Source: a virus
UHGV virus genome: UHGV-0025827
Reading direction: 5' to 3' (one strand)
DNA length: 59,104 bases
The notes under the pieces were generated by a model. That model saw only the letters and a program-made list of their open reading frames with translations. It was not told the origin of the DNA and made no database searches. Each line of letters starts with the position of its first letter. Within the stretch, counting starts at the first letter, position 1. The position numbers were made by a program, and so were the translations under genes. This document shows, one piece after another, positions 3 to 36,741 of this stretch.

Positions 3-158
3 CAGCCGGAGAACGGGGAGTACGGGTTCATCAACCCGGACCCGATGCGGATTAACACTCAGGTGGAGGGATACGGTAACCCGTTCACACCGTACACCAG
101 CAACAACTCAATCACTAGCGTAGTCGGCTCGCAGCAGCCGTCATCGTCAGGGGGCTAA
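3..158 (+). CDS. C-terminal end of an upstream late gene (partial at window edge)
   Basis: Open frame 3 from the window start to TAA at 156-158; adjacent to the downstream ATG at 160. Confidence 0.4.
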   Translation, partial: QPENGEYGFINPDPMRINTQVEGYGNPFTPYTSNNSITSVVGSQQPSSSGG

Positions 159-1023: not shown

Positions 1024-1733
1024 TGGCCGACAAAGTAAACTACGATGCCCTGCGGACAAACCCGCAGGTGCAGGAGTTCCTGGGCCTGCTCAAGCAATCC
1101 GAGGGCACGGCTGGCAAGGGTGATAACGGGTACAACGTAGGCTTTGGCGGTAACCTGTTCTCCAGCTATAACGACCACCCGCGCCAGCGCAAGACGTTCC
1201 GGCAGACCGATGGCCGTAGCAATGTGACCACCGCAGCTGGCGCGTATCAGTTCCTCGGAAGCACCTGGGACGATGTGTCGAAGTCGCTCGGCCTAAAGGA
1301 CTTCAGCCCAGCGAACCAGGACAAGGCAGCTATCGAGCTTATCCGCCGTGGTGGCGCTCTGGACAACGTACTGACCGGAGACTTCCAGGGTGCGATCAAT
1401 AAGCTCGGCTCTACCTGGGCGAGCCTGCCCAGCTCACCCTACGCGCAGCCGAAAAGAACTATGAATGAGCTACTAGGTGGTGGTACTATGCCAACACAGA
1501 CTGTCTACAAGGATGGCCAGCAAATGGTCGCCGTACCGGAGACAGCCGGGGAACGCGAAAGCATGATGGCGTTCGACATGGCAGGGCACGACAACGCAAC
1601 GCAGTCTATGTTGACCAGCGCCCTGGCCAGAATCACCGAAGCACGGAACTCGCTGGTGACCGACGCCCCACTGTTCGAAGCGTACCCATCTGACCTGGAC
1701 AACCAGCTACTGGAATTGATTGATAGGGCATAA
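1023..1733 (+). CDS. virion-associated lysozyme-like / peptidoglycan hydrolase candidate
   Basis: 236 aa; motif SEGTAGKGDNGYNVGFGG...GAYQF..STW resembles the EGG...GG..G catalytic region of phage muramidases; lies immediately upstream of the giant virion protein. Confidence 0.5.
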   Translation: MADKVNYDALRTNPQVQEFLGLLKQSEGTAGKGDNGYNVGFGGNLFSSYNDHPRQRKTFRQTDGRSNVTTAAGAYQFLGSTWDDVSKSLGLKDFSPANQDKAAIELIRRGGALDNVLTGDFQGAINKLGSTWASLPSSPYAQPKRTMNELLGGGTMPTQTVYKDGQQMVAVPETAGERESMMAFDMAGHDNATQSMLTSALARITEARNSLVTDAPLFEAYPSDLDNQLLELIDRA

Positions 1734-1737
1734 TGTT

Positions 1738-4700: not shown

Positions 4701-7700
4701 GATTCTGGAGCAGGCAGGGTTCAACCGCGCCAGCCCAATCTACCAGGCACAGCCAGTGGCCAACCACGAGCAGGAACAGCTGGGCGTCACCAGTGCCCCT
4801 GGCCCTGCGGATGCGGCTATCATCCGTGACGCTGAAGCGAACACCACGCCGTCCGGGTACAATGCAGAGAACCTGGCAGCTCGTGCTGACCGCCTGGCAG
4901 AGAGTGACAGCGAGCACGCCTTCACTGGCATGGAGCTGTCCCAGGCGCTGGAGGATGGAGACTTTGTTAAGGCCGACGAGCTGGCACAGTATCTGTTCGA
5001 GCAGGGTTTGCGTCAGTTCCGTCCGCCGCAGCAGAGCACCGGACGCGCCGCCCGCACAATCGACGATGTGTTCCTGAACGAGCTGGAGCCTGCCGAACGT
5101 CTGGCGTTGCAGCGCGAGTACGCCGACATGGCTGACACACTGCCGCCTGAAGCAGATAGCTTCGCTGCATTCCGTGACACCGCCGTGCAGGACCAGCTGC
5201 TCATGAACGCTGGCGAGGCACCGAACTCCGACATTATGTTGCGCATGTCTAAGTTTGGCCGTGCGATCATCCAGAAGCTGGCACGGGCACTGGCCATCGT
5301 CCTGGCGGCAATCACCACCAACAACATGGTGCCTGTCAATGACGCGGTAGCTGCCACTGGCCAGGGCTATGTCCAGACGGTACAGCAGGTGCAGGGCTTG
5401 AGCCGTCCGGCCAGCGCTGTGAACTCCTGGGTACAGCAGAGCAAGGATAACGCAGGCCGTCCGTACATCATCGCTGACAAGCAGTCCGGCGAGATTCACA
5501 TCGTCGGTGCAGACGGCCAGGTGAAAGCCACGGCTCCTGCGCTGTATGGCCGCAAGATAGGCGATGGCATGACCATCGGTGAAACCCCTGCTGGTATCTT
5601 CACAATCCACCAGGAGGCCGCTCCTGCATCCTACGGCGGTGACCTGCAACAGTTCGCCACTGCACCGGACGGCGACGTGTACGCCATCCACCGTGTGCTG
5701 ACGAACAACAAACAGGACCGTCCTGGTCGCCTGGCCAGCCCGACTGCGGAAGACAACCGTATCAGCCTGGGCTGCATCAACATCCCGGCTGACCTCTACA
5801 ACAAGTACCTGTCCGGTAAGTTCGACGGTAAGCTCTATGTGCTGCCTGACCAGCGCAGCCTGGGTGACGTGTTCAAAGGTGTCGACGAGCAACGTGCGCA
5901 GCAGAACCTGACGCCGAGTGAGCAGATGCCAGAGAAGTTCGACTCCCCTGACGCGACGCAGTACCAGTCGAGCACCAGCACCATCGCCCCTGGCGACTTC
6001 CACGACACTGGCAGTAATGTTATGGACACTGGTGCGGCGGTGACCGAGGAAGCGCAGAACGGCGACATGTCTACGGCGACGGCGTTCACTGCCGCCCAGG
6101 GCAACGACCCGGCTGACAGCGGTATTGTCTATGCGGCGGCACTGCCATTCTTAGCGTTTGGCCGCAACCAGCGCCGTTCGCAGAAAGGCAAGAAGAACCA
6201 GTCTCCTGACCAGACGCTGGACCCGAACGCCACGCCACGCAGTGTGTCCGATAAGGACTACCACTCCGTTGACGCCGTGCTCGGTAAGCAGCAGTCAGCA
6301 GTGAATGACCAGCCTGCCCACAACGCATCACGCCTGGGCGACTGGACTGGCAAGCTGGCGCAGAAGCTGTCGGACTCCCAGCACGCGTTCATCTCCTGGA
6401 TGGATGACACTGGCCTCGTCCCTGCGAACGGCGAGCACGATGCACACGCTGCTATCTACGCGCTGAAGTCGCAGAACAACCGTATGCGCCAGCGCAACGA
6501 GGCACTGACGCAGCAGTACATGATGCCAATCTTCAACCACATCGTGTCTGTGGCCCAGCGTCTTGGCCGCAGCCCGGACCAGGTTGGGCTGGAGATGGGT
6601 TCATGGCAGACCTTCCGTCACATCCCGGAAGCGAACCGTGCCCTGCGCCAGAACCTGGAGAATGACCTGAACAACATCATCCTCACCGGGACCGAAGCAG
6701 AAGTGCAGGCCGCGCAGACTAAGCTGGCCACGTTCGACCAGGTGCAGAACGGCCAGGCAGATATCGGCGAGCTGCGTAAGGTAGGCGTGGGTGGTCTGGC
6801 TGGTGGCCTGACCGATGCCCAGGCACGAGCTGGTATCCAGAAGGTCGAAGCACTCGGCTACCGCCCGGAAGACCTGGCAGAGTTCCGTCGCCTCACCCGC
6901 GCCACCGTTGACGGTCTGGTGCAGGAGCGTGTGCGTAACGGCACGCTGCTCCAGGAGGAAGTTGACCAGTGGAACGCGCACGGCTTTAACGACTACGTGC
7001 CGCTGTACGTGAACCACGAACGCCAGGACGCAGGCAATGACGTGTACCTGGGCACCAGCAACTTCAACCCGGCTGGCGACTACACCCGTAATGGTTCTGT
7101 CACTCGCGCCAGCCACGCTATGATTACGTTGCAGCAGATGCTGTACCGGACGGCGGCAGGGATTGAGTCAATGCCATTTAAAGAGCAGCTGCACGCCATG
7201 TACCTGAATGACCGCCCAGCTGGTCTTCAGCGTGTGAACCTGGCTGACGCTCGCATGAACCCGCGCAGCGCTGTGTTCAACCAGGAAATCTACGACAAGC
7301 GTGGCTTCACCTACACCGTGCGCGGCGTGGATGAGAACCAGCAGCCGACCATTACCCGGTACAAGTATTACTTCGACGACGATGCGATCTCCCAGGGCAT
7401 CTTCGACAACCATGCAGAGCCGGACTGGAAAGTGGTCAAGCTGTTGAGCGGCGCGACTGCTGGCTTTGGCCGACTGCTGACGAAGTACAACCCACTGTTC
7501 CCGGTCAAGACCTGGTGGCGCGATGCTGGCGAACGTCGCCGCACACTGGCATCCCGTAAGATTACGGACTCCCAGGGCAACGTCATCCCGCTGCGCAAGC
7601 TGTACACGGGTATGATGGCCTCGCTCTACAACCCGGTACATGTGGCTAACCTCGGTGCTTATCTCATGACAGGGGGCCGCGCAGACACGCCTACGGTGCG

Positions 7701-9141
7701 TGCGTACCAGGAGCTGCAACGCCTGGGTGGTGTGTCCACTTACCAGCACGCGCTGGCGAAGTCTGTCACAGACATGCGCTCCACGCTGAAGTCCATGACC
7801 GGACTGCGCAAACACGCTAAGTCACTGGACCGCTTCTTCACCCACTGGAACGAGATGTGGGCGGCGGCTCCTGCGGTGGCTGGCTACATGGCGCTGCGGA
7901 ACATGGACGTGCCTGCCGACCAGGCCGCGTTCCGTACCCTGGATGTGATGAACGCCAGCAACAAAGGTGAGTGGCATGGCACGCTGTCTGTGTTCTATCC
8001 GTTCATCGCGCCGACCTTCGAAGGTGGCCGCAACATGCTGCGCAACCTGCGCTCGCGTCGTGGCCAGGCCATCTTCGCAGCGAACGTGGTGAGCAGCATC
8101 GCGCTCTACTCCATGCTCTACTCGCTGGCCAGCTCTATGGCCGGAGACGATGACGACCAGGGCAACCTGCTCGACAACATGAGCATGGATGACCTGTCCA
8201 TGAACATCCCGCTGATTATCGGCAAGAACGATATCATCAAGATTCCGGTAGCGTTCGGTATGTCCCGCGCATCCTGGATGATTGGTGCTGGCCTGCACCG
8301 CCTGTCTCGTGGCGTTGACACCCCAGGCAAAGTGATGGGTTCGACGACACTGGCCATACTGCGCGAGCTTCAACCTATCGAGCTGGAGACGCAGGTCATG
8401 TCCGATAATATTATGGCTGGCCTCACGCTCAGTGCCGCCCCGTCTATCCTGTCTCCGATGCTGGAAGTAGCCATGAACACCAACCACTTCGGTGGCATGA
8501 TTCACAGCAAGGCGGCACGAGAAGGGTTTGCCTCGGACGCTGCCATGTCGAACACGCCGCAGGTGTGGACCGATATCGCTAAGGCGCTGCGCAGCACCAC
8601 TGGCCTGGACACGTACCCGGAGAACATCCGCCATCTGTCCCAGGCATGGCTGGTAGGCCCGATGCGTGGCGTGAGCACCGCGCTGGAGAAAAGCTCGCTG
8701 TACACCACTGGCGGTAAGCTGACCTCCCGTCAGGAGATTGGCCCGGTGTGGGATGCTGTGGGTGTCGCGCAGTTTTGGGACAACGGTAGCCGTGGCGTGT
8801 CGCGCACGTACTGGAAGTACCAGGAGCAGGCAGATGACGTTCTCCGCAAGTATGGCCAGCTGCGTACCAAAGAAGGGACGAAGCCAGGCGATGCTGCGAC
8901 AGCTGCGTACCGCCGCGTTCTGGTAGCTGGTGGTTCCCCGCAGGAAGCTCTGCTGGTACAGTATGCTATCGAAGCAGACAAGGCTCGCGAGAAAGCGAAC
9001 CGTGAGCTGAAGGCCAGCGTGAAGGACTACAAACAGAAAGACCTTAGCCTGGAGCTGCTGAGTCCTAAGTACGAGCAGCATGTGGAAAGAGAAGAACGGA
9101 TGATGCGCGAGTTCATCCGCAGAGCGAGGGGGCTTAAATGA
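1738..9141 (+). CDS. giant virion protein (tape-measure or internal ejection protein) with an L,D-transpeptidase-like domain
   Basis: Uninterrupted 7.4-kb ORF (2467 aa from ATG 1738; the listed TTG at 1720 is rejected); Ala/Gln-rich helical regions; internal segment ...NRISLGCINIP... resembles a YkuD/L,D-transpeptidase catalytic Cys motif; start ATG is embedded in the motif CATAATGTTATG. Confidence 0.8.
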   Translation: MAKAPNLFGPADFTGGNAAPIDDLFATPKTATPSTGGLSASTSVSQRIINRATTPKQPTQKQLKAQAEADRQRQVESVRQQLLQMQQSPEWAGASLDRRRDLYSKWKEQKWDPMLRSIQDSDLQEALSILPAETLNADIKNLERSISDASRLSDTWQGVKANALQTAQGIGDYAPAAIDQARIENLRNMLAMDGKPLVLGGVPQMNSDGTPFIQKFTPEQRAEVEAQIAELTGSRNEQMKQAAETQKDIDAIRNQQSIGQIDRDRELQEDIGNYGGFGGTMLNALAHPSNALQLATEQLPNAGAAIAATTIGGLTGGAPGAVAGARLSGGLLSAQDAMSSAIQQVQQMPAEQLVALDSYKQLVAQGLNPDQARDELALRAGFDAAGLGAVVGTVTGGLGAEAGLGQSLSAILTREAGPEAASSLLRTAARQLPTFARELGVEGLEEGGTQLVANVAQNRQTGSNVDILNDVGESAAQGIIASAPISGVTVAQETYRAGRNNAAPADAGGTPGVSGAPNADQNTVAQPATGGIDNEGTITVPDATQAATAEQPSAAPEAPAEGQPADTSSPTSALAQLRPVFQDINSRAGQAFEATEANAFIDQLIAAEDNGAPRNVIENALTNITRVVPPGLGYTSILDGYNQRRAARGEAAVDEMASAIVTNEEVNNGTTEPVTEADSGSAATVADVNSAMETATAASEPAATTVPEAAQSVSAEPEVAGVSRTEGDSAAENGSTTPAAETVGAIDRAITADSRPDNQPVSDTSAAVSVSERVEPGEARPGPADGRSTDSAAVSETGRNTRVGDTVTYQVPVFGNHFTGTVTSVNPSRATFSIRTDSGNTFENIPMANIRQEPLTDSFGDTDVQAEMARDDNADALARVNQAVADGRMTAEQAERLTQNAMREVERTNDRSAAGDYITERLNRLDGILPERPQDSSTITPGGRDMPALRGTAYEALGSKDPALFQAASELTKALVNNDPVAADNAAQILEQAGFNRASPIYQAQPVANHEQEQLGVTSAPGPADAAIIRDAEANTTPSGYNAENLAARADRLAESDSEHAFTGMELSQALEDGDFVKADELAQYLFEQGLRQFRPPQQSTGRAARTIDDVFLNELEPAERLALQREYADMADTLPPEADSFAAFRDTAVQDQLLMNAGEAPNSDIMLRMSKFGRAIIQKLARALAIVLAAITTNNMVPVNDAVAATGQGYVQTVQQVQGLSRPASAVNSWVQQSKDNAGRPYIIADKQSGEIHIVGADGQVKATAPALYGRKIGDGMTIGETPAGIFTIHQEAAPASYGGDLQQFATAPDGDVYAIHRVLTNNKQDRPGRLASPTAEDNRISLGCINIPADLYNKYLSGKFDGKLYVLPDQRSLGDVFKGVDEQRAQQNLTPSEQMPEKFDSPDATQYQSSTSTIAPGDFHDTGSNVMDTGAAVTEEAQNGDMSTATAFTAAQGNDPADSGIVYAAALPFLAFGRNQRRSQKGKKNQSPDQTLDPNATPRSVSDKDYHSVDAVLGKQQSAVNDQPAHNASRLGDWTGKLAQKLSDSQHAFISWMDDTGLVPANGEHDAHAAIYALKSQNNRMRQRNEALTQQYMMPIFNHIVSVAQRLGRSPDQVGLEMGSWQTFRHIPEANRALRQNLENDLNNIILTGTEAEVQAAQTKLATFDQVQNGQADIGELRKVGVGGLAGGLTDAQARAGIQKVEALGYRPEDLAEFRRLTRATVDGLVQERVRNGTLLQEEVDQWNAHGFNDYVPLYVNHERQDAGNDVYLGTSNFNPAGDYTRNGSVTRASHAMITLQQMLYRTAAGIESMPFKEQLHAMYLNDRPAGLQRVNLADARMNPRSAVFNQEIYDKRGFTYTVRGVDENQQPTITRYKYYFDDDAISQGIFDNHAEPDWKVVKLLSGATAGFGRLLTKYNPLFPVKTWWRDAGERRRTLASRKITDSQGNVIPLRKLYTGMMASLYNPVHVANLGAYLMTGGRADTPTVRAYQELQRLGGVSTYQHALAKSVTDMRSTLKSMTGLRKHAKSLDRFFTHWNEMWAAAPAVAGYMALRNMDVPADQAAFRTLDVMNASNKGEWHGTLSVFYPFIAPTFEGGRNMLRNLRSRRGQAIFAANVVSSIALYSMLYSLASSMAGDDDDQGNLLDNMSMDDLSMNIPLIIGKNDIIKIPVAFGMSRASWMIGAGLHRLSRGVDTPGKVMGSTTLAILRELQPIELETQVMSDNIMAGLTLSAAPSILSPMLEVAMNTNHFGGMIHSKAAREGFASDAAMSNTPQVWTDIAKALRSTTGLDTYPENIRHLSQAWLVGPMRGVSTALEKSSLYTTGGKLTSRQEIGPVWDAVGVAQFWDNGSRGVSRTYWKYQEQADDVLRKYGQLRTKEGTKPGDAATAAYRRVLVAGGSPQEALLVQYAIEADKAREKANRELKASVKDYKQKDLSLELLSPKYEQHVEREERMMREFIRRARGLK

Positions 9142-9554
9142 TCGTCAGGCTGTGTGAAGACACGCCTAAGCTGGGGCTGCGAATTGTGCAGCCCGGCTGC
9201 TCAGGCAAACAACTCATGGACAGGCACGTTGACCTGGTTATCACCCCAGCCAGCTGCCCGTACCCGGACTACAAAGAACCCTATTGGGAAGACTGCGAAC
9301 TGAAGTGGCGTAGCATGAGGCCGGAAATTCCGGCTTTAACTTATCCAGCGTTCGAGGTTGACGACGATGGGAATGTGGTATTCTACTTTGACTTTAGATT
9401 GTGGAGTCTGCCACCGGGACGTTACCGTGGGCAGGTAATGTTGGAAGGTGTCTGCACGCAGACGTGTTTCGATATCGACCTGTGCAACAGGCCAGTTATC
9501 ATTGACCGTGCTGTTACCGTAGGCATCCCACCATGTGGAGAGTTCGAATGTTAG
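9138..9554 (+). CDS. hypothetical virion protein
   Basis: 138 aa; start overlaps the stop of the giant gene (ATGA); same orientation. Confidence 0.55.
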   Translation: MIVRLCEDTPKLGLRIVQPGCSGKQLMDRHVDLVITPASCPYPDYKEPYWEDCELKWRSMRPEIPALTYPAFEVDDDGNVVFYFDFRLWSLPPGRYRGQVMLEGVCTQTCFDIDLCNRPVIIDRAVTVGIPPCGEFEC

Positions 9555-10141
9555 TGACACCAGTACAGTTCGCTGCATCCCTGAATGCACGACTCGACAA
9601 GGGCGACAGGCAACTGCCGCTCTCATCTTCGGATGAAAGTAAATTGATGGCGGCAGTACCGGATGAAGGGTATACTTACCTGGTACTCCGTGACCCTACA
9701 GGCGCGGAGATTATCAAGGTAGAAAACACCTGCAATACGTTACTCGTCACTCGTGGCGAGGACGGCACAGACCCGCGTAACTTCCCTCGTGGTAGCTGCG
9801 TGCGGTTCGAGATGGTCCCTGCTGTGGTCAAAGATTTAATCTGTACCTATGACTGCTGCGACGGAGACTGTCCTTGCGTTGCAGTAGCAGCAGCTGGCAT
9901 TACGCTGCCTGCGGCGAAGTCCGGTGCGAGCTGGAGTGGTTCTGCCGTATTCACTGGTGACACACCAATGACCATTGCCGTGCAGGGCGCTCCGTCCTGG
10001 GTGAAGGTGGAAGTGGGTGCAAACTTCGTGAACTTTAGCGGGGTTGCTTCTGGCTCTGGCTCGTTCAGCATTTCGGTAGCAGCGACCAACTGCGATGGCC
10101 ATGTGGCCGTGCAGAACGGTATGCTGACTGTGACCGCATAA
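9548..10141 (+). CDS. hypothetical protein, possible Ig-like tail or virion protein
   Basis: ATG 9548 preceded by GGAGAG; Thr/Val/Gly-rich beta-type composition. Confidence 0.5.
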   Translation: MLVTPVQFAASLNARLDKGDRQLPLSSSDESKLMAAVPDEGYTYLVLRDPTGAEIIKVENTCNTLLVTRGEDGTDPRNFPRGSCVRFEMVPAVVKDLICTYDCCDGDCPCVAVAAAGITLPAAKSGASWSGSAVFTGDTPMTIAVQGAPSWVKVEVGANFVNFSGVASGSGSFSISVAATNCDGHVAVQNGMLTVTA

Positions 10142-10150
10142 GGGGGTTAC

Positions 10151-10510
10151 ATGCTGGGACTACTACCGGAGTGGCTGCGTGACAGAGTTGCGGAGCAACT
10201 TGACCGGATAATCCACGTCTCAATGACGTTAACAGTGGCGTTCACGGGAATGAGCTTAGAAGACCTTGTGCTGATTATCCCTGCTCTGGTAAGCGTCTCG
10301 ATCTCCATCCTCGCATGGATAGCGAAAAGAGAAGACCGGAAGCGTCGGATGAAGATTTATCGGCAGGAAGAAGAAAAGCGGACGGAGGCAATGCTGAAGT
10401 ACCTGGACGAAGTGAAGGACAGGCCGTCTGCCAGCACGGCAGTATTGGCCAGCCAGGCAATCAGTAAGGCATCGAAGATGGGAATGGGGGAAGGAGATGA
10501 ACAGGGCTAA
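10151..10510 (+). CDS. membrane protein, putative holin/pinholin
   Basis: 119 aa; one clear TM segment (LIIPALVSVSISILAWIA) followed by a charged C-terminus; AGGGGG RBS; directly upstream of the endolysin. Confidence 0.5.
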   Translation: MLGLLPEWLRDRVAEQLDRIIHVSMTLTVAFTGMSLEDLVLIIPALVSVSISILAWIAKREDRKRRMKIYRQEEEKRTEAMLKYLDEVKDRPSASTAVLASQAISKASKMGMGEGDEQG

Positions 10511-11069
10511 GAAGATTGTATGTTCCGTGGGGATCGTAATTGCTGCGGTCTTCGGAACGTACACGGTGCAGGACACACCTAAGCGTTCTGCACCAACGCA
10601 GCTCGCGCCGCAGGGTAACCCGCTGCGCTTCAGCAAAGAAGCTATGGAGATTATCGGGAACGCCGAAGGTTGCCGACAAGACCCATACATGTGTCCGGCC
10701 AACCGTCTGACGGCTGGCATTGGCCACGCCGGGAATGATGTGCGTGCGGGTGTCGGGGTGTACTCCCTGGCCACGATTGAGAAGTGGTTCGCCGAAGACT
10801 TGTTCGACGCGCAGAACTGCATTGAGAAGTACGTTGAGGACCAGCTGGGCAGGCAACTGCCGCAGGGCGTGTTCGATGCGTTCGGCTCCTTCGTGTTCAA
10901 CATGGGCTGCGCGAAGTTCCGTGGCTACCCGGTGTACAAGCTACTCATCCAGGGCCAGTACAAGGCGGCATGTGACAGGCTACCGCTGTACGTCTACGGC
11001 GGTGGCGTGAAGCTGCCTGGCCTGGAGACGCGGCGCGGTAAGGAGCGGACGCTATGTCTAGGGCGTTAA
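10497..11069 (+). CDS. SAR endolysin (T4-lysozyme-like muramidase with an N-terminal signal-anchor)
   Basis: AAGGAG RBS; N-terminal hydrophobic SAR-like segment (IVCSVGIVIAAVFGTY); catalytic motif EG....PY......TAGIGH typical of GH24 phage lysozymes. Confidence 0.8.
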   Translation: MNRAKKIVCSVGIVIAAVFGTYTVQDTPKRSAPTQLAPQGNPLRFSKEAMEIIGNAEGCRQDPYMCPANRLTAGIGHAGNDVRAGVGVYSLATIEKWFAEDLFDAQNCIEKYVEDQLGRQLPQGVFDAFGSFVFNMGCAKFRGYPVYKLLIQGQYKAACDRLPLYVYGGGVKLPGLETRRGKERTLCLGR

Positions 11070-11557
11070 AAGTATTAGCGATGGCCACCTTAGTTGTGGC
11101 CATATTCTTATGCGGATATCTCACCGCCCGTTGGCAGGTGGCCGAACGGGATAAGGGGGAGGCGGAGAAGTCGGTGGTCCATGTCCAGGAGACGAACCAG
11201 GACAGAGCAGATGCGAAGGACGCGAATCTCGCAAATCTCCGGGGCGCTGAGACGTTTTATAAAGATGGGGTATACGATGACACCACTAAAACTGACGAGC
11301 TGTTACATCGCGTTCTGCGCATTACTGACGGGGTGCGCTCAGAAGCCGCAGGTGATACAGCCGACGCCGATAACCTTGCCACCCGTCTCAAGCGAGCTGA
11401 AGCCCGTGAAGCCAGACTTCGTGGAGCGCTTCGAATCGCGCTTGACGGAAATAGAGAAGATGCTCGGCGAGCCAATGATGTAGCTCGCCAGCTTAACCTC
11501 TGCATCAGTCAGCAGTTACTTGACCGTCAGCAGCTGGCTGAGTCCCAGCGTCGGTAA
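11054..11557 (+). CDS. i-spanin (Rz-like)
   Basis: 167 aa; N-terminal TM (LAMATLVVAIFLCGYL) then a charged coiled-coil; overlaps the endolysin end; contains an embedded +1-frame lipoprotein gene. Confidence 0.65.
   Translation: MSRALKVLAMATLVVAIFLCGYLTARWQVAERDKGEAEKSVVHVQETNQDRADAKDANLANLRGAETFYKDGVYDDTTKTDELLHRVLRITDGVRSEAAGDTADADNLATRLKRAEAREARLRGALRIALDGNREDARRANDVARQLNLCISQQLLDRQQLAESQRR
11277..11483 (+). CDS. o-spanin (Rz1-like lipoprotein) embedded in Rz
   Basis: +1 frame entirely inside Rz; lipobox LLTGC then a Pro-rich mature peptide; alternative start at 11265. Confidence 0.55.
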   Translation: MTPLKLTSCYIAFCALLTGCAQKPQVIQPTPITLPPVSSELKPVKPDFVERFESRLTEIEKMLGEPMM

Positions 11558-14500
11558 ATTTCTCCAGGTCCATTTCCTCCGGTACGCGAATCACCCAGCA
11601 CTTCGCGGACACCGGAGGCAATGAGTTCACGCCCACTGACATACGCTTCGTCTTCTGGACATTCTCGACCAGGTGCTTGTTGACCACCAGCTCCGGCGTC
11701 AGGCCATGCTGTTTGCACCAGGTCCGCAGGTGGCCAGAACGGACGAACATCAGCCGCTCGGCCATCTCGATACGGATACCCAGGTCACCCACAGGGATGC
11801 GTCTCACATAGCTGTCCATGTGCGTCGGCATATCCATCTGGTTGGCGTTGTTCGCCGAGGAAACCATGAGGATATCGCGCAGGCTATCAGCCAGGTAATC
11901 GTTGAGGCAGCTCTCGATCTCTTTCTTCGACTCGACCATGCTGAAGCGCATCCGGCGAACCATGCCCATCGCATACTCAACCACCGCAGGAATGTCGATG
12001 TTGGTCAGGCCCATCGTGTTAGACAGCTTGGCGGCTACGACAGCCGCAGCGATGGTGTTCATCCAGTAGCGTTCGTCCTGGCTGGCGATGTGCTTCTCTA
12101 CCCATGCCGCCATCGCCTTCGGAATCATGGCCAGCAGGTCAGGGTTGTCCAGCAGGCGCTGAATGAATACCTCGCCAGCGTGGCCATAGTTCTTGTTCAT
12201 CGCCGCCGTCATCTCGTTCGCCAGCGCCGGAGCGATACCAGCCATGTCCACTTCGAGTTCCAGGACACGCTTAATCTCACCATCACGGTCACGGGACAGC
12301 GCCTGCATCTTATCGAAGACGGTGTTGTTCGCCGACATAATGGTGATGGTGGACCAGCTACCGGATGCCATCATGCTCTGGCCACCGTCAGACAAGCGGT
12401 CCTTCTCACGGCCTTCCGACATTTGGAACAGCATCTCTGACAGGTCCACGTCGCTCAGGTTGGTAATCTCGTTCAGACACACTGGCAGGTTGTGACGCAT
12501 ACCCATGATGGCGAAGCGGCTGTTCATCGTTGACTGGATGTTCAGCAGCTGTTCTTCCGGGTGGCCCCACACACTGTTCACTGCGTGCTGGAGTGTCGTC
12601 TTACCAGTACCGGACAGGCGTGACCAGAAGTTCACGATACCGTTCTTGGCGATGCCTGGCGCAAAGTTCATGAGTGGTGCCGCAAACGCAAGCGCGATAC
12701 CCATCTGGCCCCATATAATATTATGCTTCTCGTAAAACTGCGGCACTGCCTTCCAGCCGTCGAGCGAGCCAGCGGTGGTAACCTTGTGTTCGGAGTAGCG
12801 TTGCAGCCTGGTAGGTAGGGCAACTTCAGAACGCGGCTGGTTCGCAGACAGGATGCACTCACCTAACACGAAGGTGCGGCGTTCGTCGCCCTGCTGGTTC
12901 GTGGCCACAGACCAACCGAAGTGTTCGCGCATATCCATGCACGGAATTTTGCGCTGGAGTTTAGCGAGGTATGTACGCATACATTCAATGACCTTCTTCT
13001 CGTTGCCTGACGTTGGCAGCATCTGATTGTTGAACAGCCAGGTGCGGATAGACTGGTCACTACCGAAGTCTCTGGCCGACATGCTGGCCTGGCGAGGCTT
13101 ATCGAACGGGTTGGTAATCTGGAACATGTAGGTCATCTGCTGGTCTGTGCGTCCCATGTTGGTACGGACGGCGTACAGCAGATAGAAGCATGATTCCAGG
13201 ATGACCTTCTCTTTGCGGATAGGGTCGCCACCGTCAACGTCTTCTTCCCACACATGGACAAGCCCCTGGCCTTCGCGCATAACGAAGCGTGGGTCTTCCA
13301 GTGGGTAGGCGACGAACCCTTTAATGTCCAGCGTCTTCGCTGGTGGTGCTTTGATTGGTTCCTGGACGGCGATGACTTTGGATTCGACAGGAGCCGATGG
13401 GTCTGGCTGGGCCTGCTGGGTGCTGACTTCGCTGACCGGGATACGTCCCAGCTCCGCAGGGGTCACCACCTTCCCGAAGTACGGGCAGTTCACGCATACG
13501 CCTGGGTTGTTCGCGTCGAACGAACGGCAGGACGCAGGGCCGTTACTGCCATGCACCACATCGTGGTCGTACTTCTGGAAGAACTGCGCGTCGTTGTGGC
13601 GTGGGTCCGCAGCAGAAATCTCGCGTGCAGTCTCGCGGCCAGTCGGGCAGCAGTTCATCACGGTCATCATGTTGAACCAGTTCGGGTACAGCTGGGAGCC
13701 AGCCGTCGCGACCTGCTCGCAGTTACGCACGATACGGTCAGCGTCCTTGTTGCGCTCGGCCATCATCGCGTGACCCATCACCGCCTGGAAGTTGCCGTTG
13801 TTCCACAGCGCGGCCAGCACAGGGTTGTTCGCGATGTTGGCTGGTGCCTGGTTTTCCTGGCGCACAATGTTCACAGGCTTCACGCCGTTGGCCACAGCGT
13901 ATTGCTTCACCGCGCTGACGAACGCTACCGGGTCCACCAGCTTGAGCGGCGTCAGTGCCGCCACAGGCTTCAGCTGGCCATGCTTGTGGTTGTGCGTACC
14001 AACCGGGCGGAGTACACGCGCCTCATCGGTGGTACATTGTGAGTCGGTCAGGACGCCAACGTGCGATACAACGCCGGAGAACAGGCACGCTACCTTCTTC
14101 CACATGGCGGCAGAGATCGCCTTCTCCAGTACCCAATAGCAGTGGATACCGTTACCGGAGTTAACCACCAGCGGAGTCGGCAGACCTACTGTCTTAGTAA
14201 GCTGGACCACCGCCAGGCACGCAGCCTTCTGGTCCGGGTAGTCTTTGCCTACGCCGCAGTCCAGGTCGAGCCAGAACGACTTGATGGCCCTGGCGTTCTC
14301 CTGGGTACGGAAGACTTTCTTCGGCGAACCGTCAGCCTTCGTGCGTCCCATAGGGTCGTTGTGCCATCCCTTTTCAAATCCAGCCATCGCATAGAAAGCG
14401 TCCTGGCCATCGGCGTCGGCCTGCAAACAATACACCGCCACGTCACGCGGAGTGGACAGCGCCTTCTGTGATGGTTTGCGAGTAGCCGGGTCGATGGAAG

Positions 14501-14570
14501 TGGCAGCGTAAACCGCGCCTTCTGGAAGGATTTGAGAAAGGAATTGCTCAATAGATAATGTCATGTCCAT
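11505..14570 (-). CDS. bifunctional primase-polymerase (AEP) / SF3 (D5-like) helicase
   Basis: About 1020 aa; AEP-type acidic motif LDLDCG in the N-terminal region; Walker A SGTGKTT and SF3-like downstream motifs in the C-terminal half; ATG at 14570/14564 preferred over the TTG at 14621. Confidence 0.85.
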   Translation of the reverse strand: MDMTLSIEQFLSQILPEGAVYAATSIDPATRKPSQKALSTPRDVAVYCLQADADGQDAFYAMAGFEKGWHNDPMGRTKADGSPKKVFRTQENARAIKSFWLDLDCGVGKDYPDQKAACLAVVQLTKTVGLPTPLVVNSGNGIHCYWVLEKAISAAMWKKVACLFSGVVSHVGVLTDSQCTTDEARVLRPVGTHNHKHGQLKPVAALTPLKLVDPVAFVSAVKQYAVANGVKPVNIVRQENQAPANIANNPVLAALWNNGNFQAVMGHAMMAERNKDADRIVRNCEQVATAGSQLYPNWFNMMTVMNCCPTGRETAREISAADPRHNDAQFFQKYDHDVVHGSNGPASCRSFDANNPGVCVNCPYFGKVVTPAELGRIPVSEVSTQQAQPDPSAPVESKVIAVQEPIKAPPAKTLDIKGFVAYPLEDPRFVMREGQGLVHVWEEDVDGGDPIRKEKVILESCFYLLYAVRTNMGRTDQQMTYMFQITNPFDKPRQASMSARDFGSDQSIRTWLFNNQMLPTSGNEKKVIECMRTYLAKLQRKIPCMDMREHFGWSVATNQQGDERRTFVLGECILSANQPRSEVALPTRLQRYSEHKVTTAGSLDGWKAVPQFYEKHNIIWGQMGIALAFAAPLMNFAPGIAKNGIVNFWSRLSGTGKTTLQHAVNSVWGHPEEQLLNIQSTMNSRFAIMGMRHNLPVCLNEITNLSDVDLSEMLFQMSEGREKDRLSDGGQSMMASGSWSTITIMSANNTVFDKMQALSRDRDGEIKRVLELEVDMAGIAPALANEMTAAMNKNYGHAGEVFIQRLLDNPDLLAMIPKAMAAWVEKHIASQDERYWMNTIAAAVVAAKLSNTMGLTNIDIPAVVEYAMGMVRRMRFSMVESKKEIESCLNDYLADSLRDILMVSSANNANQMDMPTHMDSYVRRIPVGDLGIRIEMAERLMFVRSGHLRTWCKQHGLTPELVVNKHLVENVQKTKRMSVGVNSLPPVSAKCWVIRVPEEMDLEKFTDAGTQPAADGQVTAD

Positions 14571-14622
14571 GCCCTTATGTGTCGGAGGTGGTAGTCTAGA
14601 CCCCTCCCAATCGGGGTTCAAG

Positions 14623-23418: not shown

Positions 23419-23697
23419 TCACAGGTCAACGCGGCGAATAACCGCGTCCAGGTTAGTGATGACACTCTCCACTTCGCGCTCCAGCACACGGAGATCTTCA
23501 TACAGCGGAGACAGTGGTTGGTACGGAGCCTTCGGCGCTTCTGCACAGCCCACTGGCTCAGGGAGCGGCTCAAGCAGCACCGGGTTAATCTTCTGCACCA
23601 GCGCACTGGACACGCTGCTCAGGCTGTTGATTGTGTTGCGCAGACGGTCAAGCTGCTGCGCTACGTTACCCACTTTCATGTCGTTACATTCCATCAT
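23419..23697 (-). CDS. hypothetical coiled-coil protein
   Basis: 92 aa; start overlaps the ParB-like gene stop (ATGA). Confidence 0.5.
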   Translation of the reverse strand: MMECNDMKVGNVAQQLDRLRNTINSLSSVSSALVQKINPVLLEPLPEPVGCAEAPKAPYQPLSPLYEDLRVLEREVESVITNLDAVIRRVDL

Positions 23698-24638
23698 TTG
23701 CTCGCCTCATGTTTGCTAAGAAAGTCCAGGATGATCTCCTGCATCCCACGCAACTCGCGCCAGCTGCCAGCAGGACAACGGAGCGTCAGGCTCTGGTCCG
23801 CCGCAGCCGTCTCGACGTTTGCGTTACTACCCTGGTCCACCAGCTCGACGTTCGGCAGGTGAGCCATCAGTGCCTTCAGGTAGACACGGGCGCGGCGTTC
23901 TTCTGCCTCGTCCTCTACCTCTGCCTGCACACGCTTCAGGCGCTTCTCTGTGATGCGCTCCTTACGTGTCTTGAACTTCTGTCCCTCCTGCTTCTCAGCA
24001 GGCTTCTTGCTCTTGCCAGCAGGCGCTGGTGCCGCCGCAGCGTTGACCTGCTTCGCTTCCTTCAGTGCGGCCAGCACCTTGTCCGGCCCCAGGCTACGCG
24101 CCATGTTGATAACTGGAGTGGCGGCAACATCCCCCGCCTCAATCATCGCCATGACTTCCTCGCCGGACATAGCCAGCAGCAGGTGGTTGGCTACGGTGCC
24201 TTCGGAAGCGCCAGTCTCGCGGGCGATCTCCGCATTGCTGTAGCCAGCATTACGCATACGCAAGAACGCGGTGGCGTTCTCTACTGCGGTGCCCTTGCTG
24301 CCCTGGTTGAAACGCCATGCGGCGAACAGGCGTTCCTTCTTCGAGCCAGAAAACTCCGTCATCGGAATCTTCTTCACGCCCGCCTCGATAGCAGCACGCA
24401 CACGGTGCTCACCATCGACCAGCTCCAGCTCGTCATTGTCACCCAGCGCCACCAGGACAGGCGGTACATCCTTACCGTCCAGGTACATCTGCTTGAACAT
24501 CTCGACGCGCTCCGGGTCTACCTTACGGTAGTTGTGCCCGGTCACAATCTTAATGTTCTTCGGTGGCGCAGAGAATGCCTTCGCTGCGGTCATGCCCTGC
24601 TTGTCGCCCTTGTCGTATTTGGTTCCCAGCTTCGCCAT
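23694..24638 (-). CDS. ParB/Srx-like nuclease-domain protein with a C-terminal HTH-like region
   Basis: 314 aa; GGAGAAG RBS; ParB N-terminal motif VDGEHRVRAA (DGxHR); Lys/Ala-rich C-terminus. Confidence 0.75.
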   Translation of the reverse strand: MAKLGTKYDKGDKQGMTAAKAFSAPPKNIKIVTGHNYRKVDPERVEMFKQMYLDGKDVPPVLVALGDNDELELVDGEHRVRAAIEAGVKKIPMTEFSGSKKERLFAAWRFNQGSKGTAVENATAFLRMRNAGYSNAEIARETGASEGTVANHLLLAMSGEEVMAMIEAGDVAATPVINMARSLGPDKVLAALKEAKQVNAAAAPAPAGKSKKPAEKQEGQKFKTRKERITEKRLKRVQAEVEDEAEERRARVYLKALMAHLPNVELVDQGSNANVETAAADQSLTLRCPAGSWRELRGMQEIILDFLSKHEASK

Positions 24639-25025: not shown

Positions 25026-25391
25026 TCAGTTCAGTGTCTTGTTAATAACCTGTGCAGTAGCACGACGCACGTCACGGTTGGTTGCCTTGTTCACATAGAA
25101 CACAACCTTCGTGTCGCTGTAGAGTCGAGCAACCTTAGCCAGCCACAGCATCGCCGCCACGTAACGCTCCGCAGGAACGGTAGCAGCCATGACAGTCTCA
25201 ACACTCCAGGCAGGCGAACCATCCGGCGTGGTCAACGGCTCGGCGTTGCCCTCCAGAATCATCTTCAGCTTATCCAGTTCGCCAGCCATGAGTGGCAGTG
25301 CAGTTGGTGGCAGGTCGCCCTTTGTAGCAATTGCTACGTGCCCTGACGCCCACATGTAGGCGACGGGTACGGAAGGTTTCTTCTCAGCCAT
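25026..25391 (-). CDS. hypothetical protein
   Basis: 121 aa; start overlaps the upstream stop. Confidence 0.55.
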   Translation of the reverse strand: MAEKKPSVPVAYMWASGHVAIATKGDLPPTALPLMAGELDKLKMILEGNAEPLTTPDGSPAWSVETVMAATVPAERYVAAMLWLAKVARLYSDTKVVFYVNKATNRDVRRATAQVINKTLN

Positions 25392-34268: not shown

Positions 34269-34541
34269 TCAATGAACGAAATGCTTTTCCCCCTTAACCA
34301 GCACGTAGCACGTCCCGGCGTTGCCTATCGCGTCACAATATATGCGGCGCTCCCGTCCCATGTATCGAACAACCCAGGACGTGGGAACTTTCTTCTTGCC
34401 GTAGTTGTCCGGTCCGAAAGGCATAGCCGCCAGCGCCGCCATTCTCGGCGTAATACTCTCGTGTGCGGTGTAGTCCGCATACTCACACCAGCCGCCCGGC
34501 TTCCCGTTTGGCGTCCCAATCATTACAGTTTTAGTGCTCAT
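34269..34541 (-). CDS. hypothetical protein
   Basis: 90 aa. Confidence 0.5.
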   Translation of the reverse strand: MSTKTVMIGTPNGKPGGWCEYADYTAHESITPRMAALAAMPFGPDNYGKKKVPTSWVVRYMGRERRIYCDAIGNAGTCYVLVKGEKHFVH

Positions 34542-34951
34542 ACAGTCGCCCCCTTTACAGCTATCTCAATCAATGCACATTTGAGCAGGTCACTACTCAC
34601 CCGGAACGCCTCGCTTGCTGGCATCCCGTTAAACTTTGCGCCCTCCATCAGCGCCCGGTGATGCGTCACCAGTGCGCGGCGCTCCACCACTGACAACCCG
34701 CGCCAACCTTGCGATACCAGATACGCCGCCAGAATCCCCGCCACCCGCGCCGCGTTATTGCGGGCAAAGTCGCTTTTCTCGTCCTGCATTGCCCACAATA
34801 TTTCATTACGGACGTAGTTCACCACACGCATAAAGTGATCCCCGCAATCCTCCATCGCATGATGGACGCGGGCATTAGTCACGCAGCAACCCGTTGCCGC
34901 AATAATGCGCTCGTGCATCGCTTCTACCTGCTGTTGTGTCACGGTCTGCAT
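34538..34951 (-). CDS. first gene of the leftward early operon (hypothetical)
   Basis: 137 aa; SD-like GGGTGAG; an operator-like inverted repeat lies just upstream. Confidence 0.55.
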   Translation of the reverse strand: MQTVTQQQVEAMHERIIAATGCCVTNARVHHAMEDCGDHFMRVVNYVRNEILWAMQDEKSDFARNNAARVAGILAAYLVSQGWRGLSVVERRALVTHHRALMEGAKFNGMPASEAFRVSSDLLKCALIEIAVKGATV

Positions 34952-34986
34952 AGTCTCACCCTATTATGTTCACTAGTTAATCTGAC

Positions 34987-35026
34987 AATGCCGCCATAAT
35001 GTTATGCTTCAGACTATGGCGGCATT
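34987..35026. promoter_or_regulatory. operator-like 12-bp perfect inverted repeat enclosing a motif copy
   Basis: AATGCCGCCATA (34987..34998) and TATGGCGGCATT (35015..35026), with the family motif CATAATGTTATG at 34995..35006 spanning the junction of the left arm and the loop; about 35 bp upstream of the first early gene. Confidence 0.55.
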
Positions 35027-35089
35027 AGCTCATTAACCCTATGCGCCCGACTTATCAGCCTCCCCCTTGCCACCCGTAGACACTAGCAC

Positions 35090-35145
35090 TACTTAACGTT
35101 TCCGCTTCGTGCTATCCCCGGCGCATTACTTAACGTTTCCGCTTC
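35090..35145. repeat. 19-bp perfect direct repeat TACTTAACGTTTCCGCTTC, two copies
   Basis: Copies at 35090..35108 and 35127..35145. Confidence 0.7.
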
Positions 35146-35640
35146 ATGCGCTTTTGTGCGTCCGCCTCTTTTCGGTCTCATCGCTTCGGTTAGTATGCAC
35201 CCGGTTACCCGGTATCTATAGCCCTTAAGCCTCTCAGGGACTAACCTCACTGCAACGGATGGCGGTAAGATATCCATATTGTTAAAGAACATTCGCTCCC
35301 CTGTCGTCGGGTCACTAGCGCGTTTCAGTGTTGCGCCTCACTTGAGTAGTAGCGGTAAGTCGTTTTGTGTGTCTCGCCTTACCGTGATTCAAAGTTAACG
35401 CCACGCCCCGGAAATGTCAAGCGGATTCGATTGATAGTCTGCATTGCACGTTAGGCAGGGAAACGCGCATTGCGCACTACGCACGCCCACGCGAGCACAG
35501 CCCACAATGCAAGGCGGTGCACACTAGCACACAGGCCGCGCCCCGCCTGCCTTGCACGCAATGTAAGCCCCGCCGGATTAACCCGCGCACATGCCGCAAT
35601 AGCAAGGGGGATTCGGTGGATTATGCTAGATAGGGGGGAT

Positions 35641-35704
35641 GTAACCGTGTAACCGTTTTGTAACCACGTAAGTTATTGATGTTACGCCTGTTACCGTGTA
35701 ACCG
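35641..35704. repeat. iteron-like repeats GT(A/T)ACCGTGTAACCG
   Basis: Copies at 35641..35655 and 35690..35704 plus the partial GTAACCACGTAAG at 35660. Confidence 0.6.
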
Positions 35705-35800
35705 GGAAAAGCGGCGCTCTGTGGGTTGCGCGTCGTGTCGTGTACACACACGCAGTAAAGGCGGCAAAGTGTCGCGTACGAGATATACCCCTGTAAATCC

Positions 35801-36047
35801 GGTTACAAAGTTACATTATGATTAAGCTAATAAGATTAAATTAATTAAAAACAACAACTTGCCGCCCCTTATCGGTACAGAATTTGGTTACATCGCGGTT
35901 ACATTGCACAAAATATCGTGCTGCTATTGCGCGGGCAGTGTGGGCAAGGCCAGGCGTGGCGCGGCTTGCGGGCGTGGCTGCTATTGCACGCGCAGTAAAT
36001 CGTGCTGGGCTAAGTGATTGATAACTAACAAAGGTTACAAAGTTACA
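35801..36047. repeat. GGTTACAAAGTTACA iterons (two copies) flanking an AT-rich island (35811..35862)
   Basis: Exact 15-mers at 35801..35815 and 36033..36047; an AT-rich stretch ttacattatgattaagctaataagattaaattaattaaaaacaacaa between them; numerous ATTGCAC/GCAATG and AATCGTGCTG repeats around it. Confidence 0.6.
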
Positions 36048-36362
36048 CGGCGCGGCTTGCGGTAGCATTGCACTAGCACGCACCATGCACATGTAATGAT
36101 TTCAATAACTTAGGCTAGTGAATCGTGCTGAATGGCGGCGCGTTCTGTGATGCGGCGCACGCAATGCAGCGACGGCGGAGGAAATAACGCAGCACGCCCC
36201 GCGCCGCCTGGGAAATTGGCACGCATAGCAAGCCCCGCCCCCTTTGGACCGCCGAAAACGCAGGGGGCCACTCACTACTACATAGTATTCCTCTCGACCG
36301 TTGCGCATTTTTATTTTTTCTGCCACACTCGGAGCAGTGCAAGCAAGACAACGGGAGTCTAC

Positions 36363-36656
36363 ATGAAATACATTGCAATCGTAACCGCAGGCGAACAGAG
36401 CGAGAACCTTCTCCGGCTACTGCGGGAAGTCTATCAGTATGGCAAGCGCAGTTTTATGCGCGACGAAATCAGTAACGCAGATGAGTACAACCGCTCGTTC
36501 GACGTTAAGGCAATTTCCACCGGGCGTATTGTGTTCGGACTTGCGTTTGAAGATGAGAACGAGGCGATAGTGATGGCCATCGCGCAGCGGCACTTCGCAG
36601 GAGTTGAGGCGAAACCTTACACGGCGGGCGAGCTGGTAACCTTCCAGGAGCTGTAG
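36363..36656 (+). CDS. first rightward gene (hypothetical, 97 aa)
   Basis: GGGAG RBS; ATG 36363. Confidence 0.55.
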   Translation: MKYIAIVTAGEQSENLLRLLREVYQYGKRSFMRDEISNADEYNRSFDVKAISTGRIVFGLAFEDENEAIVMAIAQRHFAGVEAKPYTAGELVTFQEL

Positions 36657-36741
36657 TTGACAAAGGCCACATGATGAGTAAGATTACTCCCAGGAACGGT
36701 ATGACATTGCGACCAGCCAGCTGGGAGAGTTAGTGCTCCGG

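Follow-up and report, generated by a model that had tools for sequence, protein, structure and literature searches.

A putative composite control region in the single long intergenic gap of a novel ~59-kb enterobacterial phage

The virus genome UHGV-0025827, a stretch of 59,104 nt that we analyzed as a whole and call the window, contains a single long gap between genes at positions 34952–36362. The phage is a novel ~59-kb phage of enterobacteria, and we consider it probable that the gap serves it as a composite cis-acting control region, in which an early leader, an origin-like module, and a rightward control segment lie side by side. The left third carries a leftward sigma-70 promoter followed by an RNA hairpin and a boxA that recur in the early leaders of T7-like phages, and the middle carries short iterons arranged around the least stable DNA of the window.

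An initial annotation, made from the sequence alone, had described the gap as the only long non-coding stretch and as the point at which transcription diverges. Strand-aware calling of open reading frames (ORFs) across the window agrees with both statements. The next-longest gap spans ~330 nt; the minus-strand genes run leftward from 34951 to 11505, beginning with a 137-aa early gene without a known family (34538–34951, minus strand), and the plus-strand genes run rightward from 36363 to 59104 and then from 160 to 11557, beginning with a 97-aa gene (36363–36656, plus strand). The non-coding region is conserved at 0.7 to 0.9, compared with 0.4 to 0.5 for the adjacent 97-aa gene, and its designation as a non-coding cis-acting control region holds. 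Every repeat listed in the initial annotation was found where it had been placed, namely an inverted repeat with arms at 34976–34998 and 35015–35037 and a perfect 12-bp core, two 27-nt direct repeats at 35086–35112 and 35123–35149 (93%), TGTAACCGTGTAACCG at 35640 and 35689, GGTTACAAAGTTACA at 35801 and 36033, and the AATCGTGCTG, GCAGTAAA, and ATTGCAC repeat families. Several of these words are concentrated in the gap. GGTTACA/TGTAACC occurs eight times within it and twice in the other 57.7 kb (Poisson P ~8e-16), and the corresponding counts for the gap and elsewhere in the window are 5 and 0 for CGGTTACA, 4 and 1 for ATTGCAC, and 5 and 2 for CACTAGC. The tetramer CTAG is rare (21 sites in the genome), and seven of its sites fall within 34973–36115, mostly inside CACTAGC. 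The spacings are irregular (8, 11, 38, 85, and 146 nt) and the repeats are 7 to 8 nt long, in line with the earlier statement that this is not an array of clustered regularly interspaced short palindromic repeats (CRISPR).

Relatives of the phage were taken from IMG/VR plus ENA, Logan, and NCBI assemblies. They include a sister clade in which the polymerase is 53% identical and the replication genes stand in the same order as in the window. At least 24 Escherichia coli isolate assemblies at NCBI (including GCA_012236785.1, GCA_015190565.1, and GCA_021558175.1; L166–L168) contain this clade as separate ~60.5-kb contigs, and it also forms the complete circular plasmid pSTEC648_2 (CP061838.1, 60,552 bp; L169 and L170); a Shiga toxin-producing E. 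coli (STEC) strain is among the carriers.

Early promoter, hairpin, and boxA

A distant blastn comparison of the gap with phages returned 90 records, all of which align to one 75-nt block at 35268–35342 with 79 to 87% identity and E values down to 1e-14. Among the matches listed, these are overwhelmingly ~37–40-kb T7-like phages of enterobacteria. There the block is unannotated, precedes the first early gene (0.3/SAMase) by ~130 nt in early-gene orientation, and, as judged from the alignment, begins right after an A3-type sigma-70 promoter. In the window, the block is on the minus strand and is likewise aimed at the early genes. T7 itself shows the hairpin TCACC-ACACTGAAA-GGTGA after A3, followed by GACGCTCTTTAACAATCTGG. 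The complete genomes of E. coli gave no match to the leader block.

The block contains three elements. Hairpin 1 (35317–35337, minus strand) has a stem of 5 to 6 bp and an invariant loop, (A)ACACUGAAA(C), with a conserved GUGA just before it. We aligned 35 non-identical instances from the window's family, T7, and T7-like IMG/VR contigs, and found at least 12 different stems around this one loop. The three innermost pairs of the core are paired in 100% of the instances and the fourth in 89%, with two to four pair types each; pairs 9–25, 10–24, and 11–23 are 100% paired with three to four pair types each. The covariation of 0.561 compares with 0.172 in shuffles (0/500) and with at most 0.12 in slid registers. 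A covariance model finds one copy in the window at 84 bits, the next best hit scoring 12 bits, implying that there is no cryptic rightward copy. The small hairpin 2 (35299–35311, minus strand; CCC-GACGACA-GGG) is common to Kayfunavirus-type T7-like phages, which have GGC-GACGACA-GCC, and it is paired only in that subtype. The third element, boxA (GTTCTTTAACA, 35280–35290, minus strand), matches the gamma-proteobacterial consensus GYTCTTTAANA (PMC5725501) at every position and is conserved in the relatives. It occurs once in 59 kb, where 0.1 copies would be expected. Its position is on the sense strand, with the predicted transcription start ~95 nt upstream and the first early ATG 339 nt downstream; a conserved block, UGGAUAUCUUACCGCCAUCCGUUGCAGU, comes after it. 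In the sister lineage L004, the boxA reads TGCTCTTTAACAA, which we take to be the rrn form. By analogy with rrn operons, the lambda nut sites, and the T7 early leader, we infer that the hairpin and boxA together act as a Nus factor–dependent processive antitermination signal.

The initial annotation had placed an early promoter inside the gap, and on the leftward side we find one at 35392–35420 on the minus strand, with the form TTGACA-17 nt-TAACTT and a score of 11.8. It ranks among the six highest-scoring sigma-70 sites of the window and would start transcription near 35385. A stricter consensus scan missed it because its -10 hexamer is weak. This distal promoter is kept at the same position in the relatives, most of which add a proximal canonical TTGACA-17-TATGAT before the hairpin; the window has lost the proximal copy by a deletion of ~70 nt. 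The order of promoter or promoters, hairpin, boxA, ~300 to 360 nt, and ATG is found in every family member save the most divergent lineage, and pSTEC648_2 has TTGACA-17-TTTAAT and then a boxA, CGCTCTTTAACAAT. In the most divergent lineage (L029, positions 2268–4000, and L030), the leader has neither the hairpin and boxA nor any TTGACA, and a DUF7249 gene is inserted ahead of the first early gene.

We read the interval from 34952 to ~35385 as the putative transcribed 5′ leader of the 23-kb minus-strand early operon. Downstream of boxA, its DNA is conserved even where the first early protein is only ~73% identical. A segment conserved across the family at 35150–35266 (minus strand) includes GGATATCTTACCGCCATCCGTTGCAGT, and a further block, TAGTGTCTACGGGTGGCAAGGGGGAGGCTGATAA (35052–35085, minus strand), is invariant. 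Between the two lie twin tandem RNA hairpins (35086–35149, minus strand) that share a 19-nt loop region, GAAGCGGAAACGUUAAGUA, with an inner GAAA tetraloop and differ in their outer stems (GCGCAU/AUGCGC and UAGCAC/GUGCUA). The twin hairpins occur only in the window-type sublineage, the GGCTACA lineage described below being without them, and they could be a duplicated protein-binding RNA site. A long hairpin at 34976–35037 (minus strand), with 23-nt arms and a 12-bp perfect core, is retained in the centroid fold and stands 14 nt upstream of the Shine-Dalgarno sequence GGGTGAG (34962–34956). Its core stem is invariant, its loop is wholly different between sublineages, and its outer stem stays paired through a G-U pair on the minus-sense RNA. 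We regard it as a candidate RNase III site or mRNA 5′ stabilizer on the model of T7 R0.3. The initial annotation had treated the 12-bp inverted repeat and the 19-bp direct repeats as operators or iterons; both instead correspond to these RNA hairpins of the transcribed leader. This calls for caution in annotation, since palindromes and direct repeats beside a first gene can be leader RNA elements rather than operators. Overall, the predicted fold of the leader is somewhat more favorable than that of shuffled sequence (z = -2.2).

Iterons, AT island, and candidate binders

The middle of the gap holds 10 to 12 GGTTACA-type 7-mers (35640–36047) in a strict split of orientations, with four copies and two variants in the minus orientation followed by six in the plus orientation. 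The left cluster (35640–35704, minus orientation) comprises four TGTAACC and the variants TGTTACC and TGTTACG. A plus-oriented pair, GGTTACAAAGTTACA (35801–35815), abuts an AT-rich island at 35816–35856, a candidate DNA-unwinding element whose position and composition are conserved and whose sequence is not. A conserved block, AACAACAACTTGCCGCC (35848–35866), covers the right edge of the island and keeps its TGCCGC core even in the E. coli plasmid relative. To the right of the island follow a second plus-oriented pair, GGTTACATCGCGGTTACA (35886–35903), and a third, GGTTACAAAGTTACA (36033–36047). With 84% A+T at 35807–35856, the island is the most AT-rich and least stable duplex of the window; its stability of -64.9 kcal/mol per 60 nt is 5.4 standard deviations (SD) from the mean of -90.3 (SD 4.7). 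That iterons flank the island, as the initial annotation had proposed, is correct for the pairs at 35801–35815 and 35886–35903, but not for the second GGTTACAAAGTTACA copy at 36033. The wider description of GGTTACA iterons and an AT-rich island as a conserved, origin-like architecture stands.

The order of minus-oriented cluster, plus-oriented pair with AT island, and two further plus-oriented pairs is kept in 12 relatives, while the repeat itself changes. In the ~73% lineage the iteron is GGCTACA, and the most divergent lineage, L029, has the same architecture with another iteron, AATCCCAG/CTGGGATT. The contigs with the CTGGGATT iteron are ENA ERZ28587509 HAYD20-1_SAMN10722611_METAG-scaffold_76 (L029) and PPYF01654101.1. 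A layout that is kept while the repeat sequence is swapped points to a phage-encoded, sequence-specific binder rather than a host factor, and the natural exchange of GGTTACA for CTGGGATT makes the identity of this binder directly testable. In pSTEC648_2, a 2.4-kb gap at the divergence point contains four CTGTAGCA copies in one orientation after boxA; TGCTACAGTGCTACAG abuts the AT island, TGCCGC comes next, and then a further copy. This plasmid lacks an integrase, a classical Rep, and a replicon type, and no other origin or candidate region is visible in it. The presence of the same module in a plasmid without another visible origin is the strongest, if indirect, support for origin function, and an origin, on grounds of sequence and layout, is the reading of 35640–36047 that we favor by a little. 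It would make the gap a compact candidate origin for a Cch/SaPI-Rep-kind primase-helicase in a Gram-negative phage-plasmid, SaPI denoting the staphylococcal pathogenicity islands. Origin and partition, or ParB-loading, roles could also coexist.

Some further candidates were set aside around this module. A perfect DnaA box, TGTGGATAA, lies beside the AT island in L029 only; DnaA boxes are not a family feature, and a DnaA-dependent origin was rejected. An integration host factor (IHF) site in the island was likewise dropped, the consensus match, read by eye, being present in one lineage only. The GGTTACA at 10145 is part of a ribosome-binding-site/ATG context and was not counted as a distant iteron.

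Two proteins of the window are candidates for the iteron binder. The 1038-aa DUF927 primase-helicase (11505–14621, minus strand) is a candidate trans-acting initiator, and its helicase domain matches PDB 5DGK, "Active helicase" (E = 1.4e-7). We take this entry to be Cch of the staphylococcal cassette chromosome SCCmec, as its name matches the title of the paper cited below. Cch is a homologue of SaPI-Rep whose C-terminal winged helix binds DNA, and SaPI origins consist of 6 to 12 short iterons in opposite orientations around an AT-rich center that are read by the Rep C-terminal domain (PMC9371898). In the phage protein, identity over the C-terminal ~160 residues is 100% to a relative whose iterons are the same and 42 to 52% to a GGCTACA-iteron relative, compared with ~85% for the remaining protein. 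The alternative repeat binder is a ParB-like helix-turn-helix (HTH) protein of the Spo0J/Noc type and the CTPase family (23694–24638, minus strand), recognized by profile and structure matches (PHROG 1033 at 2e-36 and PDB 1VZ0 at 5e-10) and by a GEHR N-domain motif. Its recognition helix, S-G-VANHLLLA, is invariant in four lineages with overall identity down to ~45%, and the three of those four lineages with known iterons share a GYTACA core. Upstream of the HTH/ParB-like gene pair, at 25324–25337, the window has a perfect 14-nt palindrome, GTAGCAATTGCTAC, whose half-site resembles the GCTACA iteron core and the GCAAT dyad and which may be an autoregulatory site.

Putative rightward control and competing explanations

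The right third of the gap contains quasi-palindromic, operator-like sites (35920–35996), with CTGCTATTGCR at 35920 and 35977, an inverted copy at 35595, and the related GCAWTGC at 35441, 35467, 36065, and 36161. These CTGCTATTGCR/GCAWTGC dyads recur in the right third and near the early promoter and are enriched 7- to 11-fold. Their lineage counterparts are GCGCAATGC in L029, with 16 copies of the GCAWTGC core, and GCGTAWTACGC in pSTEC648_2. We consider the short dyads the best candidates for true operators. The initial annotation had also proposed divergent promoters, yet only the leftward one was found: over 35421–36362, no sigma-70-like site scores above 6.7 on either strand, and the best rightward one, at no more than 5.8, is at background level. 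The first strong plus-strand sigma-70 sites lie at 36657 and 39213, implying that the rightward promoter is probably factor-dependent. A segment conserved in the family just before the first rightward gene (36232–36351, plus strand), with GCCCCGCCCCCTTTGGACCG, CTACATAGTATT, and ATTTTTATTTTTTCTGCCAC and no sigma-70 consensus, is a candidate for a leader or a factor-dependent promoter; the final ~120 nt ahead of 36363 hold the family-conserved blocks CCCCCTTTGGAC and CTACATAGTATT and CTGCC after a T-rich run. A sigma-54 promoter at TGGCACGCATAGCAAG (36217) was rejected, since the GG-to-GC spacing, read by eye, is 8 nt and not 10. Four near-consensus sigma-70 matches with scores of 11.7 to 13.0, at 36657 and 39213 on the plus strand and 32062 and 25639 on the minus strand, are in sense orientation within the operons, which suggests that host polymerase has internal promoters there; the 36657 match comes just past the first rightward gene.

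In the scheme that we propose, host sigma-70 RNA polymerase would start leftward from 35420–35392, and ~45 nt into the transcript the hairpin with loop ACACUGAAA, the small second hairpin, and boxA would emerge. NusB/NusE (S10) would bind the boxA RNA, as on the analogous RNAs named above, and with NusA and NusG would yield a termination-resistant polymerase able to pass through the ~340-nt untranslated leader and the 23-kb early operon. RNA processing or stability is the probable role of the other hairpins in the leader, among them the one that precedes the ribosome-binding site. At the origin-like module, a phage-encoded sequence-specific protein would bind the iterons, melt the AT island, and let the phage primase-helicase load, this helicase being related to the self-loading Cch/SaPI-Rep helicases. 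Replication would be bidirectional and co-directional with both transcription blocks, and the lineage-specific dyads and the conserved proximal block would control the rightward operon via a factor-dependent, non-sigma-70 promoter.

The most serious competitor for the iteron/AT module, though in our judgment an unlikely one, is a partition or ParB-loading site, that is, a centromere-like parS array that possibly silences the flanking promoters. A precedent is P1 parS, where an AT-rich IHF site is surrounded by heptamer and hexamer boxes of either orientation. The ParB-like protein with its invariant recognition helix and the shared GYTACA core fits this explanation, as do the maintenance of the sister clade as a plasmid with an addiction module and the lack of a canonical 16-bp parS (TGTTTCACGTGAAACA, up to three mismatches) anywhere in the window. 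However, ParA is missing among the ~45 proteins scanned, a set that does not include every ORF of the window, and from the annotation of pSTEC648_2. Moreover, Spo0J-type ParBs normally read 16-bp palindromes and not tandem 7–8-mers, the least stable DNA flanked by short iterons is a classic origin signature, and the plasmid relative needs an origin, for which no other region offers itself. It is rather improbable that the repeats are transcriptional operators only, forming an early/late switch in which the AT island is a promoter/UP element or bend and the origin lies elsewhere, for example within a gene as in lambda or N15. The position of the gap between divergently transcribed blocks, the small HTH proteins encoded, and the dyads, which look like dimeric HTH sites and change sequence between lineages, would suit such a switch; in addition, the GTTACA core weakly resembles a -35 hexamer, and weak promoter-like matches overlap the iteron pairs. 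Against this, the iterons form two opposed sets of tandem direct repeats and are not dyads overlapping promoter hexamers, the stretch to the right of the early promoter has no sigma-70-like site scoring above 6.7, and the architecture survives the iteron swap beside a unique AT island, as at iteron origins.

The remaining explanations carry little weight. A packaging site or physical genome ends (pac/cos or terminal repeats) in the gap would account for the several short-read contigs of relatives that end there, one of them exactly at the AT island, and for the three E. coli sister-clade draft contigs that, by position arithmetic, start near the homologous island. The contigs of L040, L032, L037, and L166–L168 start at the AT island or an iteron cluster or right beside one. 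However, the contig ends are spread out and do not fall at a single site, and assemblies ordinarily break at repeats and extreme A+T content, so that these breaks are probably an assembly or coverage artifact. The window and other full-length contigs are unbroken here, the window has no terminal overlap, the terminase genes are 5.5 to 6 kb off, and pSTEC648_2 was deposited as circular, which together make genome ends in the gap very improbable. Least probable of all is a hidden small protein gene or a free-standing non-coding RNA gene. Gene callers do put short ORFs in the homologous gap of some relatives, and the leader folds better than shuffled sequence, but none of the 17 ORFs of at least 30 aa in the gap is intact across divergent relatives, where matches run in overlapping frames on both strands with stops and frameshifts. 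Rfam at gathering and permissive thresholds returned nothing relevant, its sole match being a chance small nucleolar RNA (E = 0.87), and no tRNA or tmRNA gene was found. The initial annotation had named a conserved ORF or a structured RNA over the region as findings that would speak against it; the former is absent, and structured RNA does cover part of the region, in its left third. The only well-supported RNA structure is sense to, and continuous with, the early operon.

Several observations weigh against parts of the composite scheme. Past its first ~130 nt, the leader is G-rich (C/G below 1), and a role as a Rho-loading site is not supported by this composition. Without an obvious site of this kind in the leader, boxA may instead be of use later in the 23-kb operon or through the rate of elongation. 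The cumulative GC-skew minimum falls within the gap but coincides with the switch in gene orientation and is therefore not independent evidence of an origin. No DnaA box (TTATCCACA, up to one mismatch) occurs in the region, and the AT island is flanked by plus-oriented pairs on both sides, with the opposed minus-oriented cluster 97 nt away. As for the helicase as iteron binder, its C-terminal domain is the fastest-evolving part in every pairing among four lineages, and between two GCTACA-type genomes this domain is 26% identical, no more alike than elsewhere. An AlphaFold2 model of the domain from a four-sequence alignment is unusable, with a predicted local distance difference test (pLDDT) score of 39, and the gene is 21 kb from the iterons, whereas SaPI origins abut rep. 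The recognition helix of the ParB-like protein, invariant across genomes that share the GYTACA core, would fit this protein as the binder at least as well as the helicase.

A more far-reaching version, which we hold only tentatively and do not expect to prove right as a whole, is that the hairpin and boxA form an antitermination cassette that works on its own, with no need for a phage N-type protein, and that has moved horizontally between lytic T7-like phages and the unrelated family of ~59-kb phage-plasmids. The loop would dock a host factor, and the element would represent a distinct, uncatalogued class of processive antitermination RNA, while the ParB-like protein, not the helicase, would read the iterons and couple origin firing, partition, and operon silencing in one 400-bp array. 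If the antitermination signal is real, a phage outside the T7 group would rely on host Nus antitermination through a module shared with T7, which bears on how host polymerase–dependent phages transcribe operons of 20 to 30 kb. T7's own early leader holds the conserved hairpin as well, and this hairpin is absent from Rfam.

The phage family and comparison with known systems

The kinds of element in the gap are already known; the phage family itself is new. Megablast of 20 kb of the window against phages gave no match, none of 50,697 phage records being close, and homologues of the 137-aa early protein form 16 clusters on contigs of ~58 to 60 kb. The window is a representative of this uncultivated family of ~58–60-kb enterobacterial phages. 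The gene content is that of a tailed phage. A portal-like protein is encoded together with a large terminase, and there are holin-, lysozyme-, and spanin-like genes. For replication, the phage has a module with a family A polymerase, the DUF927 primase-helicase, an SNF2 helicase, an exonuclease, and a DHH phosphoesterase. A scan of ~45 window proteins revealed neither a sigma factor nor a phage RNA polymerase, suggesting that host RNA polymerase is apparently used throughout. A 2473-aa polyvalent protein (1720–9141, plus strand) with YkuD (L,D-transpeptidase) at residues 1248–1358 and LPD38 at residues 2162–2320 is not an RNA polymerase but probably a virion protein or one that is injected.

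The sister clade gave no match in E. coli complete genomes and none among cultured phages. pSTEC648_2 carries phage structural and lysis genes, a ParB-family protein, HigB/HigA, ArdA, and a DUF927 protein, and the clade is apparently an undescribed group of phage-plasmids. As the same module is present in this plasmid-maintained relative, the phage of the window is probably a phage-plasmid too. Accessory anti-defense and addiction genes differ between lineages; a Tad2-like (anti-Thoeris) gene lies just upstream of the polymerase in L165 (9688–9954) and L171 (7784–8044), and L171 has a ParE-like toxin gene as well. Between the window and L162 (IMGVR_UViG_3300045988_100715), the primase-helicase is 99.7% and the SNF2 helicase 100% identical, while a neighboring 401-aa protein is only 82% and a 112-aa protein 64% identical. 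Such strong mosaicism in sequence identity indicates recent recombination inside the family.

Comparing the window with the A3-to-0.3 leader of T7-like phages (Studiervirinae), the order of parts is the same: sigma-70 promoter, GUGA within tens of nucleotides of it, hairpin with ACACUGAAA, second hairpin, boxA (G[C/U]UCUUUAACAAU), and first early gene. In comparison with Kayfunavirus-type phages, the 75 nt are 79 to 87% identical. T7, like the window, has another hairpin just ahead of its first gene, which in T7 is the R0.3 RNase III site. However, the genome of the window is unrelated: it is ~59 kb long, has divergent operons, and encodes a DUF927 primase-helicase and a family A polymerase. 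No RNA polymerase of its own was found, and host RNA polymerase would have to transcribe all of it, not the early region only. The window has also lost the proximal promoter copy, which puts the hairpin ~45 nt into the transcript, and its leader past boxA is much longer (~340 nt) with conserved blocks of its own. Likewise, the boxB-boxA-boxC arrangement of rrn operons and other gamma-proteobacterial BoxA targets (suhB and CRISPR leaders) share with the window a consensus boxA, a preceding hairpin, and a place in the 5′ untranslated part of a long operon. In contrast to rrn, the element of the window is phage-borne and no boxC was identified in it, no boxC definition having been applied, and the loop of its hairpin is strictly conserved. 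To our knowledge, a strictly conserved hairpin loop is not a feature of rrn boxB.

For the iteron module, P1 parS/ParB resembles the window in its short boxes, in the ParB-family protein encoded, and in having relatives that live as plasmids. The array of the window is, however, ~400 bp long with 10 to 12 copies, its ParB is Spo0J/Noc-like, and no ParA was found. The P4 alpha protein (ori/crr) and N15 RepA are single large primase-helicase proteins whose C-terminal origin-binding domain reads octamer-type iterons (TGTTCACC in P4), and proteins of this kind support plasmid-state replication of phage-like elements in Enterobacteriaceae. Unlike in the window, the N15 origin is inside repA, and P4 has two separated repeat regions. 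The origins of SaPI and SCCmec elements (PMC9371898) also differ from the module in some respects: the iterons of the window are 7 to 8 bp rather than 5 to 6 bp, the region lies 21 kb away from the helicase gene and not directly after it, the AT island is directly flanked by same-orientation pairs, and the host is Gram-negative. Nevertheless, these origins share with the window 6 to 12 short iterons in opposed sets with an AT-rich region among them, an iteron sequence that varies by lineage while the layout is kept, and a 5DGK-homologous helicase domain fused to a primase, as in PriRep5.

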